A DNA stretch of 13,077 nt from a virus (lineage: Duplodnaviria > Heunggongvirae > Uroviricota > Caudoviricetes). The translations under genes and the position numbers were made by a program. Position 1 is the stretch's first letter; every line of letters begins with the position of its first letter. Of the stretch, positions 4,644 to 5,991 are shown one piece after another. The stretch is from IMG/VR virus record IMGVR_UViG_2671180603_000001, one strand, 5' to 3'. Below the pieces are notes generated by a model. It saw nothing but the letters and a program-made list of their open reading frames with translations. It made no database searches and was not told the DNA's origin.

Positions 4644-5086
4644 GCCGCCCTCCCTGTTCGTTGTGACCATTCATACTCTCGCCGGGAGTTATCACTCCAC
4701 CGCACGTTGCGCTCTGAGCCGAACCAGAACATGATTTCGATAAGCTCAGTCATGCTGGCCTTTCGCATTTTGCTGGTACGCACGCCAAGCATGACAACGC
4801 CACCGCCGATACCAGGCGCACTTCGTTGCTCCAGTTTTTTGGTCTTAAGCCACAGGGCAGTGAACAGGTCTTTCCAGTCTTCCGGCGCCAGCCGTTGACC
4901 ATGCCATAGCACCTGACGCGAAACATCGTTCAGCATCGGCCACATACGGTCATTCTGCGCTTTGCTGCGTTTGGGTTCTCTAACGTGGACTTCGTGGGGT
5001 GACTTGTCGTCGATGGGTAGTGAGAGAATGGCGTCTATGGCGTTATTTCTGATTGCTTCGTTGCGAAGCAGGAATAATTGCTTCAC
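4640..5086 (-). CDS. ninB: NinB (Orf-family recombination mediator)
   Basis: 148-aa ORF with a GTG start, preceded by AGGAGG. Aligns by eye along its whole length with lambda NinB (MKxL..., QN..LW..L.DVSRQV.WHG, ERxV.WSD, C-terminal W..R.G.RAA). Confidence 0.85.
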
Positions 5087-5339
5087 TTGCCCTCCTGCTC
5101 TTCTCCTTGCGCTTATCCGCGTAATACCGGTTTAATTCGTCAGACATCTTCTCTCCGATAAGCGGCCATGACTCAAACCTCGCATTCGCAAAATTCTCAA
5201 GCCATTTCGCAAAATCATCCAATTTATCTGCTAACCAATAAACAAAATATGACAGCCATACTGCTGAAGCCAAAAAGATACGATGCGGATTAAGGATGAA
5301 AATAAGCGATATTTTCATTCCTCGTGATACTTTGCTCAT
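5043..5339 (-). CDS. hypothetical small membrane protein
   Basis: 98 aa from the ATG at 5339 (GAAGGAG Shine-Dalgarno 5 nt upstream). One long hydrophobic segment (ISLIFILNPHRIFLASAVWLSYFVYWL) followed by a basic tail. The 3-prime end overlaps the ninB start by 44 nt. Confidence 0.5.
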   Translation of the reverse strand: MSKVSRGMKISLIFILNPHRIFLASAVWLSYFVYWLADKLDDFAKWLENFANARFESWPLIGEKMSDELNRYYADKRKEKSRRASEAIIPASQRSNQK

Positions 5340-5349
5340 GCTCACTCCT

Positions 5350-5565
5350 TCACTTTAAATCCAGACTCCGGATAATTCTGTCACACTGAAAATCATTATC
5401 GATTTTAACCAACCGGCGAAGAACGCGGTCACGCGGATAGCTCCGTGGCTTAGGGGCGTTTTTCTGTCTCTCGCCAGTCGGAAGTCTGGAAGCAGACCAG
5501 TACCGCTTTGCACGACCAATGTTCTCCTGAAAGTCGGCGCGGACAAGCTCAGTCAACGAACTCAT
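5350..5565 (-). CDS. hypothetical protein, 71 aa, basic
   Basis: ATG preceded at 9 nt by a consensus GAGGAGG Shine-Dalgarno. The 5-prime leader shares a conserved motif with the primase-helicase leader. I recognise no family. Confidence 0.55.
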   Translation of the reverse strand: MSSLTELVRADFQENIGRAKRYWSASRLPTGERQKNAPKPRSYPRDRVLRRLVKIDNDFQCDRIIRSLDLK

Positions 5566-5696
5566 TTCTTAAAACCTCCTCAAACGTATTCTGACGCATT
5601 TTTCATTCTCGCTGCTATATAAATACCTTGCACGCGTTTACCTCGCTACAGAGCGATTGTGATGCCTTAAAAGCGATTTATTGAAGTGATATTTGC

Positions 5697-5975
5697 TTAA
5701 TCGAAATTCTTTTCTTTGATTCCTGCGGCCCTGATGGCTTTCATTACTGCAATTACCGTTTTGTCACGCCCATCCTCATAACCCATCGCATAAGCACCTT
5801 CTTCACCATCTTTCCAAAAGTCGTCATTCGATTCGGGCCAGTCGATATCCAGTTCAATAGCTGCTCGCGATGCCTGCCATATCACCCAGGCAAACTCTTT
5901 TAATTCATCGTCTCCTGTGAACTGGCTTTTGTCTTTTGACCACCAGTTTTCAAACTGTCGGTAGCTATCGTTCAC
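5697..5975 (-). CDS. hypothetical acidic Trp-rich protein
   Basis: Track ORF starts at TTG 5990; I prefer GTG at 5975 because GGGGGAGAGGG lies just upstream. No ATG near the N-terminus. Acidic composition with several Trp. Starts immediately after a terminator hairpin. Confidence 0.4.
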   Translation of the reverse strand: MNDSYRQFENWWSKDKSQFTGDDELKEFAWVIWQASRAAIELDIDWPESNDDFWKDGEEGAYAMGYEDGRDKTVIAVMKAIRAAGIKEKNFD

Positions 5976-5991
5976 TTCCCTCTCCCCCAAA

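Follow-up and report, generated by a model that had tools for sequence, protein, structure and literature searches.

What are the small genes that stand between the primase-helicase gene and ninB in the prophage sequence analyzed here (13,077 nt; hereafter, the window), and where do they belong? A sequence-only reading had proposed three small genes without an assignable family in the position where lambda carries ren. We found that the three genes are indeed present on the minus strand as three non-overlapping ORFs (hereafter A, B, and C), whereas the other two parts of that proposal did not survive comparison with related phages. The region is very probably catalogued nin-region cargo of lambdoid phages, with delayed-early expression by terminator read-through.

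The ninA element and the borders of the cluster

The cluster is bordered upstream by an intein-bearing primase-helicase gene (6050-8956; Toprim_2 and AAA_25 domains) and downstream by ninB (4640..5086, minus strand; GTG start), which encodes an Orf-family recombination mediator (PF05772, E 4.6e-47). Abutting the primase-helicase stop (TAAATG) is a fourth ORF of the region that was overlooked at first reading, namely a ninA-like ORF of 25 codons (MTIYITELIAGLLVIAGLFIWGRGK; 5972..6049, minus strand), homologous to the ren/ninB spacer ORF of lambda and to ninA of P22 and L. Inside this ORF lies an intrinsic terminator (5989..6020, minus strand) composed of a hairpin (AGGCCTGC-loop-GCAGGCCT) and a T-run (TTTTTATTT). 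The terminator had been recognized just before gene A, and it is confirmed at 6020..5997 on the minus strand, with an 8-bp stem that has six G-C pairs. The TGA of ninA overlaps the GTG start of gene A (GTGA).

The ninA ORF of lambda (25/26 codons), its hairpin and T-run, and the GGGGGAGAGGGAA ribosome-binding module are nearly identical to those of the window. The terminator found here shares its design, and nearly all of its sequence, with the lambda hairpin that separates ren from ninB, which we take to be tR2. The surroundings differ: in lambda the terminator module follows ren and leads directly into ninB, whereas here it follows the intein-bearing primase-helicase and leads first into A, then B and C, and finally ninB. 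The cluster is consequently not in the ren position, because lambda ren stands 5′ of the ninA/terminator element and ninB directly after it; in the window the ren slot is empty (tblastn with a Ren protein gave no match there) and A, B, and C are inserted downstream of the element. We also considered whether one of the three genes could itself be Ren and rejected this, given the lack of homology, the location downstream of ninA, and the co-occurrence of Ren with A in related prophages (ren and gene A together in 46 of the 87 classified loci). What lambda Ren and the genes described here have in common is that they are small, non-essential, and placed in the same operon after the replication genes, even though Ren sits upstream of ninA and A, B, and C downstream.

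The ninA peptide is probably a by-product of the terminator: about ten related loci retain the hairpin with a ninA ORF that carries a frameshift or has had half of its length replaced. For the same reason, a real membrane peptide encoded by ninA is probably to be dismissed. A weak Rfam match to Trp_leader (E 3), covering ninA together with the terminator, was set aside as a chance likeness, the combination being a short ORF with a terminator, and the Rfam search of the window and of positions 4900-6150 returned nothing within the A-B-C cluster.

Gene A (5697..5975, minus strand) had been given a non-ATG start just past the terminator. This still stands, but the codon is the GTG at 5975 and not the TTG at 5990. 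The ribosome-binding module named above precedes this GTG, homologous loci carry an ATG at the matching position, and in lambda the string TTG-GGG-GAG-AGG-GAA stands before the ninB ATG as it does before the start of A here. The resulting 92-aa form is also the RefSeq annotation. Between A and B lies a non-coding spacer of 131 nt (5566..5696, minus strand), which is conserved along with the A-B pair across loci, apart from a short patch that is hypervariable. The searches of this spacer revealed neither a promoter nor a terminator, no Rfam match, and no stable fold, its fold being no better than that of shuffled sequence (z = +1.27). A consensus scan, which a weak promoter in the spacer could escape, found no promoter-like site 5′ of A, B, or C.

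In our reading, A, B, and C would be accessory genes, independent of one another and dispensable, that were inserted into a lambda-like prophage between its ninA/tR2-type terminator and ninB. From the anatomy, they would lack a dedicated promoter, and their transcription would be delayed-early, as part of the rightward early operon, and would require RNA polymerase to pass the terminator at 6020-5997. Translation of A would begin at the GTG that overlaps the ninA stop codon, B would start independently from its strong Shine-Dalgarno (SD) sequence after the spacer, and C would be coupled to B, with the start of ninB lying within C. In lambda, the nin genes are delayed-early, N-dependent, and non-essential (PMC10695390, PMC5630979).

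Families of genes A, B, and C

Each of the three genes is homologous to catalogued nin-region ORFs (Pfam, PHROG, and the ORFs of ST64T and phage L), which replaces the earlier view that no family could be assigned. Homology of this kind had itself been named in advance as grounds for refutation, and by that standard the earlier view fails. The catalogued homologues are orf86, orf69, and orf98 of ST64T/phage L and orf29 of VT2-Sakai. Shigella sonnei deposits include proteins identical to those of the cluster. Of the homology and fold searches that had been recommended, the former assigned A, B, and C to families, whereas the latter gave no significant match.

Gene A is acidic and Trp-rich, as had been described (pI 4.40, six Trp in 92 aa), and belongs to phrog_343 (E 6e-30), the same family as orf86 of ST64T/L. 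Its membership of PF26207 (Phage_phiTE_015) is based on the annotation of its homologues, 93 of the 98 listed (i.e., nearly all) having a precomputed PF26207 assignment, and on an hhalign comparison of the A-family alignment with phiTE_015 (98% probability, E 6e-14, 87 aligned columns). The VT2-Sakai/Sakai Sp5 protein is 98% identical to A. Compared to 15 alleles, A is under purifying selection (dN/dS 0.03-0.44). Acidity is a trait of the family (median pI 4.7), with exceptions at pI 9.3 and 6.1. The AlphaFold2 model shows four helices at low confidence (pLDDT 68), so that fold searches with A say little; with low confidence, we regard A as a soluble acidic helical protein. The net charge is only about -9, with much of it in a low-confidence loop, and a DNA mimic of the Ocr or ArdA type was looked for in Pfam, PDB-profile, and fold comparisons without a match, the fold comparison being made with the same model.

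Gene B (5350..5565, minus strand; ATG start) agrees with its first description: it encodes a basic protein of 71 aa (pI 10.6) and has a consensus SD (GAGGAGG, 5575-5581) 9 nt before the ATG. The protein is a member of DUF7301 (PF23975; 80.2 bits vs. a cut-off of 27, E 1.2e-22, model positions 1-64 of 65) and of phrog_1785 (E 4.9e-31), and orf69 of ST64T/L, from the same family, is 55% identical. B is a small basic protein that possibly binds nucleic acid, a guess from charge alone. Entries labeled as a 140-aa YbcN family within the 90% cluster of B are unrelated in sequence and were discarded as a clustering artefact.

Gene C (5043..5339, minus strand; 98 aa, pI 9.8) starts at the ATG at 5339 and not at the GTG at 5345. 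An SD sequence (AAGGAG), which overlaps the stop of B, lies 6 nt before this ATG. The overlap between C and ninB is exactly 44 nt (5043-5086), as had been proposed, and both the ribosome-binding site and the GTG start of ninB lie inside the 3′ end of C. The protein matches phrog_5603 over the entire profile (E 3.5e-51, positions 1-92 of 92) and shares 94-97% of its residues with orf98 of phages ST64T and L. When C was used in an exhaustive HMMER search of 1.84 billion representatives, it retrieved only 14 clusters, and no function is attached to any of them. Among 12 family sequences, down to 25% identity, an N-P-H motif is invariant and W35, P59, and G62 are nearly invariant, and relatives down to ~30% identity retain the NPH and WPxxG motifs. 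C combines a hydrophobic N-terminal region, kinked at the invariant NPH(R/H), with the WPxxG motif and a C-terminal part that is basic and helical. The tail of C is more than ninB read in another frame, because distant relatives without a ninB neighbor retain the 'A.EAIMP' tail; the shared ninB overlap does account for the identical tails on Lar and extended A proteins.

The single-pass membrane topology proposed for C is plausible on the basis of hydrophobicity: residues 10-37 are hydrophobic, but the segment is broken by the invariant N-P-H-(R/H). The sole stretch at transmembrane-like hydrophobicity comprises the 17 residues 21-37 (Kyte-Doolittle mean 1.72; summed Hessa-scale value near 0.5), and all windows of 19-21 residues contain the invariant N-P-H-R and score poorly. 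The AlphaFold2 model places helices at 6-16 and 18-57 with a kink at NPH, and anchoring of C in the inner membrane via its N-terminus is plausible from these predictions.

Close alleles of C (n = 17) show a pN/pS of 0.84 and an even spread of variable sites over codon positions (10, 15, and 13). Three of the 17 have a nonsense codon at position 80, which removes only the tail, and the first 19 residues are invariant. These values fit a dispensable or fast-evolving accessory gene. The dN/dS of A, the Pfam score of B, and the motifs that C retains over long distances indicate that the ORFs are real and not chance.

The families of A, B, and C are all listed in the catalogues as conserved hypotheticals without an assigned function. 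NCBIfam gave no matches for the three genes, nor did the PADLOC defense models at E up to 1, and profile searches of PDB sequences with the three alignments gave nothing below E 0.5. Scattered sub-threshold Pfam matches among members of the A and C alignments (Glyoxalase_4, HTH_RNase_II, etc.) were treated as noise. A literature search on DUF7301, PF26207, phiTE_015, ECs1192-1194, and Lar together with ninB found no papers. A, B, and C are already-known accessory genes of the lambdoid nin-region pool, and the locus is ordinary as it stands, with catalogued families and exact proteins that are already in public Shigella genomes.

Variable contents of the ninA-ninB stretch

We compared the contents of the ninA-ninB stretch over ~140 related loci, with architectures taken from 87 loci and from 36 loci on viral contigs. 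The stretch holds A alone, A-B, A-B-Lar, A-B-C, A-C, or A-B-HNH. The most frequent architecture is ren>ninA>A>B>Lar>NinB; the others are A>NinB, A>B>NinB, A>B>C>NinB, A>C>NinB, and A>B>HNH>NinB. In phage L the order is ninA>orf90>B>A′>C>NinB, compared to A-B-C here, and no ren, Lar, Dam, or HNH gene was found in the window. The direct homologues in ST64T/L and in the Stx phages (VT2-Sakai orf29; Sp5 ECs_1192 and ECs_1193) occupy the same location after ninA and before ninB. Homology between Lar-containing and C-containing contexts starts ~12 nt upstream of the ninB start.

These comparisons show that the ninA-ninB stretch is a recombination hot spot with contents swapped between phages, and that the place directly before ninB is hypervariable, being empty or occupied by an Orf98-family gene (the family of C), Lar, an HNH endonuclease gene, or genes for unrelated small proteins of a membrane or Cys-rich type. 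The ninB gene is the conserved downstream anchor of this variable slot. The A family is the most constant occupant of the stretch and usually lies just upstream of NinB: in eight of nine species-representative genomes, belonging to different genera, NinB is found 0-700 nt downstream of the A-family gene, and the gaps are filled by unrelated small ORFs. Members of the phiTE_015 family occur in ~11% of complete E. coli genomes (Stx2 prophage Sp5 of O157:H7 Sakai is one carrier), and A occurs without C in ~600 of the 5426 genomes. C was found in one of the 5426, and the A-B-C combination is rare.

Lar, NinB, and the possible roles of the cluster

In Stx prophages, Lar lies in the exact slot of C, after DUF7301 and with the same 44-nt overlap with ninB. 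Lar and Lar-like restriction alleviation proteins (PF14354; Rac prophage, Stx phages) share this slot and have no sequence similarity to C: C gave no Pfam match at all, and neither C nor any of the 12 family members matched PF14354 at E up to 1. C lacks the CPFCG ... C..C motif of the Lar at a related locus (L003), because it has no cysteine, and it has the hydrophobic N-terminus that this Lar sequence lacks. In the unrelated phage phiTE, the A-family gene adjoins a Lar-domain gene as well (phiTE_014, Lar_restr_allev, E 2.4e-11), which overlaps the end of phiTE_015. A, B, and C may be host-interaction factors early in lytic growth, most likely for counter-defense, a suggestion that we hold tentatively and with more doubt than belief. 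For the roles proposed at first reading (host takeover, anti-defense, exclusion, toxicity), the support is contextual, namely Lar in the slot of C and beside the A family in phiTE, and the sequence and fold searches pointed to none of them. That C and Lar use one slot links them by association and does not establish a common function, in a region that also admits selfish HNH genes.

A more specific and rather unlikely version is that the ninA-ninB stretch is a counter-defense hot spot anchored by A, with C as a membrane-anchored alternative to Lar and A as the common partner or a second inhibitor. C could then, for example, inhibit a membrane-associated defense or restriction system. This would explain why A has Lar as a neighbor not only in Stx phages but also in phiTE, an unrelated phage, and why C retains an A-family neighbor across 30-97% identity, even with inverted gene order. 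Much of the same evidence bears on the idea that A and C, or A and whatever precedes ninB (e.g., Lar), form a functional pair in which A works with or regulates a variable partner. Among 36 viral contigs, every C locus with upstream sequence has an A-family gene, the A alleles being very different (35-99% identical to either reference) and C >88% identical, and C relatives at 36-53% identity retain the upstream A-family gene. In two loci (L130 and L131), which have two different A alleles, C precedes A with an ATGA overlap, the reverse of the order here, and the overlap of phiTE_015 with its Lar-domain neighbor points the same way. Nevertheless, the ~600 genomes with A and without C, set against the single genome with C, the loci in which A stands alone directly before ninB, and the lack of a detectable A-family neighbor in the five most distant C clusters make such a pair unlikely. 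Moreover, A and C both favor the place upstream of ninB, so their adjacency may be positional only, and the sampled lineages are non-independent.

The closeness of A to NinB in eight of the nine species-representative genomes and in nearly all viral loci, together with the purifying selection on A, would also be expected if A were an accessory factor of NinB (Orf) recombination, e.g., by modulating SSB, RecBCD, or ssDNA loading. We consider this very unlikely, because lambda and P22 have NinB without A (PMC8022706), the phiTE homologue of A has no adjacent NinB (Pfam on four neighboring ORFs), and synteny within lambdoid nin regions reflects inheritance and is not in itself a sign of joint function. 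Another reading, which we judge quite improbable, treats C as a relic in this lineage, decaying or without function, and leaves the cluster no present function other than hitch-hiking in the recombination hot spot. The pN/pS of C, the even distribution over codon positions, and the three premature-stop alleles are consistent with it, and near-neutral evolution with nonsense alleles could indicate decay instead of an arms race; the nin region is also dispensable in the laboratory, and Sf6 sheds parts of it under fast-growth selection (PMC5630979). However, the invariant N-P-H and the near-invariant WPxxG and tail motifs, retained to ~30% identity, imply long-term purifying selection, the nonsense alleles lose only the tail while the first 19 residues do not vary among close alleles, and A and B show no signs of decay in the window.

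Catalogued nin-region cargo, expressed by read-through, is the explanation that we prefer for the cluster. The gain over the earlier reading is a corrected map, in which the genes are an insertion between a lambda-type ren/ninB terminator element and ninB. If the association with Lar or NinB is functional, the A family and its rarer Orf98 neighbor would become candidates for counter-defense or recombination control.

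The ninA element and the ren slot

All relevant genes of the locus lie on the minus strand. The primase-helicase (968 aa; 6050-8956, -) carries Toprim_2 at residues 209-296 and AAA_25 at residues 787-849 and is split by an intein-like Hint/LAGLIDADG insert (Hom_end_hint at residues 379-424, LAGLIDADG_3 at 579-634); a toprim protein of equal length occurs in an E. coli prophage (95NR1). Directly after its stop codon (TAAATG), the window sequence contains a 25-codon ninA-like ORF (6049..5972, -; product MTIYITELIAGLLVIAGLFIWGRGK), whose TGA overlaps the GTG start of gene A in a shared GTGA. 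The sequence-only reading had placed three ORFs between the primase-helicase and ninB, with largely correct coordinates and signals; all three (genes A, B, and C) are present, but ninA was overlooked, making four, and the start of gene A was misplaced. The terminator seen in that reading was recovered by the terminator scan inside the ninA ORF (6020..5997, -), with stem AGGCCTGC/GCAGGCCT followed by TTTTTATTT.

In the lambda sequence, the ren stop overlaps the ATG of a 26-codon ORF (MTIYITELITGLLVIAGLFIWGRGKS) that shares this hairpin and T-run and terminates at the ninB ATG. This terminator of the lambda ren|ninB spacer is presumably the tR2 of the lambda map. The terminator-bearing ninA of the window is likewise chained by start and stop codons to both adjacent genes, an arrangement seen in lambda (ren-ATGA-ninA-...-ATG ninB), where the region has been written ren-ninA-ninI (PMC3349717). 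Because the lambda spacer has the same ORF and hairpin running onto ninB, genes A, B, and C are an insertion between this element and ninB. They do not stand in the ren position, as had been proposed: the ren slot is upstream of the ninA/terminator element and is empty in the window, where no ren homologue was found, and the three genes are downstream. Many related loci carry ren alongside A and B.

In pyrBI-type attenuation, ribosomes close behind RNA polymerase block hairpin formation, and ribosomes translating ninA could in principle act in this way. Against this, about 10 related loci have a ninA frameshifted by a loop deletion or replaced in its 5' half and retain the hairpin and T-run, so the reading frame probably just happens to accompany the terminator.

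Families and signals of genes A, B, and C

The three genes had been described as having no assignable family, which does not hold. Gene A (92 aa; 5975..5697, -) matches phrog_343 (E 6e-30), and its homologues carry PF26207, named Phage_phiTE_015 (hhalign probability 98% for the A-family alignment against phiTE_015 itself). It is 98% identical to a Stx phage protein, including that of VT2-Sakai/Sp5 (ECs_1192), and is present in 602 of 5426 complete E. coli genomes, with a dN/dS of 0.03-0.44 (versus 15 alleles) and mostly third-position changes. With a pI of 4.40, 6 Trp, and 21 acidic against 12 basic residues, the product is acidic and Trp-rich, both being traits of the family (median pI 4.7, median Trp count 5), with exceptions; its low-confidence AlphaFold2 model (pLDDT 68) has four helices. 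The non-ATG start proposed for gene A stands as GTG at 5975, but not as TTG at 5990. The string TTG-GGG-GAG-AGG-GAA closes the ninA ORF at its 3' end and acts as a ribosome-binding module, and lambda has it ahead of the ninB ATG; furthermore, related loci have ATG exactly at the GTG position and RefSeq annotates the 92-aa form.

The A-B spacer (5566-5696, -) is 131 nt long, unusual given the tight packing of the nin region. It is nearly invariant across Stx-type loci and the window locus type, save for a hypervariable patch of about 15 nt (GGTATTTATATAGC in the window versus GGCATGCCAATAAGC or GGTATGCCGATAAGC in other loci), and no promoter, terminator, Rfam match, or stable fold was detected in it. 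Gene B (71 aa; 5565..5350, -; ATG start) encodes a basic protein (pI 10.6) with a Shine-Dalgarno sequence (GAGGAGG, 9 nt ahead of the ATG), as previously described, and matches DUF7301 in Pfam (80 bits, cut-off 27) and phrog_1785. Its 90%-identity cluster also lists 140-aa 'YbcN family' proteins without shared sequence, a kinship that we rejected as an apparent clustering artefact.

Gene C (98 aa; 5339..5043, -; ATG start with AAGGAG 6 nt upstream) overlaps ninB (4640-5086, -; PF05772, E 4.6e-47) by 44 nt, in agreement with the earlier description. Its profile match is to phrog_5603 (E 3.5e-51), and in the Salmonella phages ST64T and L the gene is orf98, in the company of orf69, a DUF7301 homologue, and orf86, an A-family homologue. 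It occurs in one of 5426 complete E. coli genomes, yet in 26 P22-like Salmonella phages. A rival reading is that gene C is decaying: pN/pS is 0.84 among 17 close alleles, three of which stop at codon 80, and short-term constraint is weak, with almost neutral evolution. Relatives make up only 14 clusters among 1.84 billion representative proteins, and down to about 25-30% identity N-P-H is invariant, a Trp and WPxxG are near-invariant, and the A.EAI.P tail is conserved. The label 'single-pass membrane protein' is a candidate reading. The 17-residue stretch 21-37 is the only one hydrophobic enough to span a membrane, but the hydrophobic region (residues 10-37) is divided by the invariant N-P-H-(R/H), which makes membrane anchoring plausible at most. 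Basic residues before this region and acidic ones after it suggest a cytoplasmic N-terminus. The AlphaFold2 model (pLDDT 77) has helices 6-16 and 18-57, kinked at NPH, and helix 61-88.

Shigella sonnei records contain the exact A, B, and C proteins next to one another. The dN/dS of A, the DUF7301 match of B, and the motifs kept among relatives of C mark all three as real genes, and the cluster is already-catalogued nin-region cargo. The families are annotated as of unknown function; the literature search found no papers on them, and sequence and profile searches of PDB, NCBIfam, PADLOC, and Pfam (every family member) returned nothing significant.

Swappable cassettes upstream of ninB

We classified 87 loci found via gene A and 36 found via gene C. 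The ninA-ninB stretch contained A, A-B, A-B-Lar (the most frequent type, mostly preceded by ren; Lar is a restriction-alleviation family), A-B-C (the window and a few other loci), A-C, or A-B-HNH. In phage L the order is orf90-B-A'-C, whereas it is A-B-C in the window. Homology between Lar and C contexts sets in at the ninB ribosome-binding site, about 12 nt ahead of the start codon. Any gene directly before ninB reads into it and ends at the same stop, hence the ...ASQRSNQK tail common to C, Lar, and some extended A proteins. NinB is encoded 0-700 nt downstream of the A-family gene in eight of nine species-representative genomes; genes B and C are absent from all nine, with unrelated small ORFs in the gaps, of which some are membrane-like and others Cys-rich. 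The A family thus accompanies NinB fairly constantly on its upstream side, and the position immediately ahead of ninB is a cargo slot of hypervariable content. Genes A, B, and C belong to known families, and each is a cassette of its own that can be swapped.

In related loci where A abuts ninB (L012/L078 type), the joint reads ...TTCGATGAAGCAAA. Compared with the window, where gene A ends ...TTCGATTAAGCAAA (5695-5705) and ninB starts GTGAAGCAA (5080-5090), this brackets the B-C block by a short near-repeat, AAGCAA, which may mark a recombination joint.

Elsewhere in the window, 3532-3729 (-) has Rfam gathering-level matches to C4 antisense RNA (75 bits), isrK (72 bits), and c4 a1/b1 targets (50 bits) just upstream of the antirepressor gene (2793-3479), an arrangement that resembles an antirepressor control module of the P1/P7 type (immI-like) within a lambdoid prophage. 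On the opposite strand (3663-4425, +), a toxin of the RelE/ParE type (Gp49/DUF891) is paired with a HigA-type HTH antitoxin, inserted between the ninE and antirepressor genes; the same pair is annotated in E. coli FDAARGOS_944. Downstream of the gene for the Q-family antiterminator (533-1156) are two tRNA genes (120-272, -), matched in position by tRNA-Thr and tRNA-Asn in a related E. coli prophage.

Expression and possible function

Genes A, B, and C follow a strong terminator, and the promoter scan recognised no promoter of their own. Start and stop signals are chained: GTGA joins ninA to A, the Shine-Dalgarno sequence of C overlaps the B stop, and ninB starts inside C. The nin genes of lambda belong to the delayed-early class, depend on antitermination, and can be dispensed with (PMC10695390; PMC5630979; PMC8022706). 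The three products would be synthesised in the early lytic phase and would act on the host.

Several associations may bear on function. In Stx phages, a Lar-family gene holds the slot occupied by C in the window. In the unrelated lytic myovirus phiTE (JQ015307; 8969-9647 of locus L146), phiTE_014, annotated as hypothetical, overlaps the 3' end of the A homologue phiTE_015, namesake of the Pfam family, and contains a Lar_restr_allev domain within residues 1-53 (E 2.4e-11). An A-family gene lies just upstream of C relatives at 36-53% identity and immediately downstream of one at about 30% identity (two different A alleles on two contigs). Because Lar recurs in these settings, counter-defence is the best single guess, albeit a doubtful one. 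Alternatively, A may work as a system with a partner; strict A-C pairing is opposed by A mostly occurring without C, by the five most distant C clusters having no detectable A neighbour, and by both genes simply favouring the neighbourhood of ninB. A could also be accessory to NinB-mediated recombination. Of all this, only the neighbourhood of the phiTE_015 family, Lar, and Orf98 upstream of ninB offers a lead worth taking to the bench.
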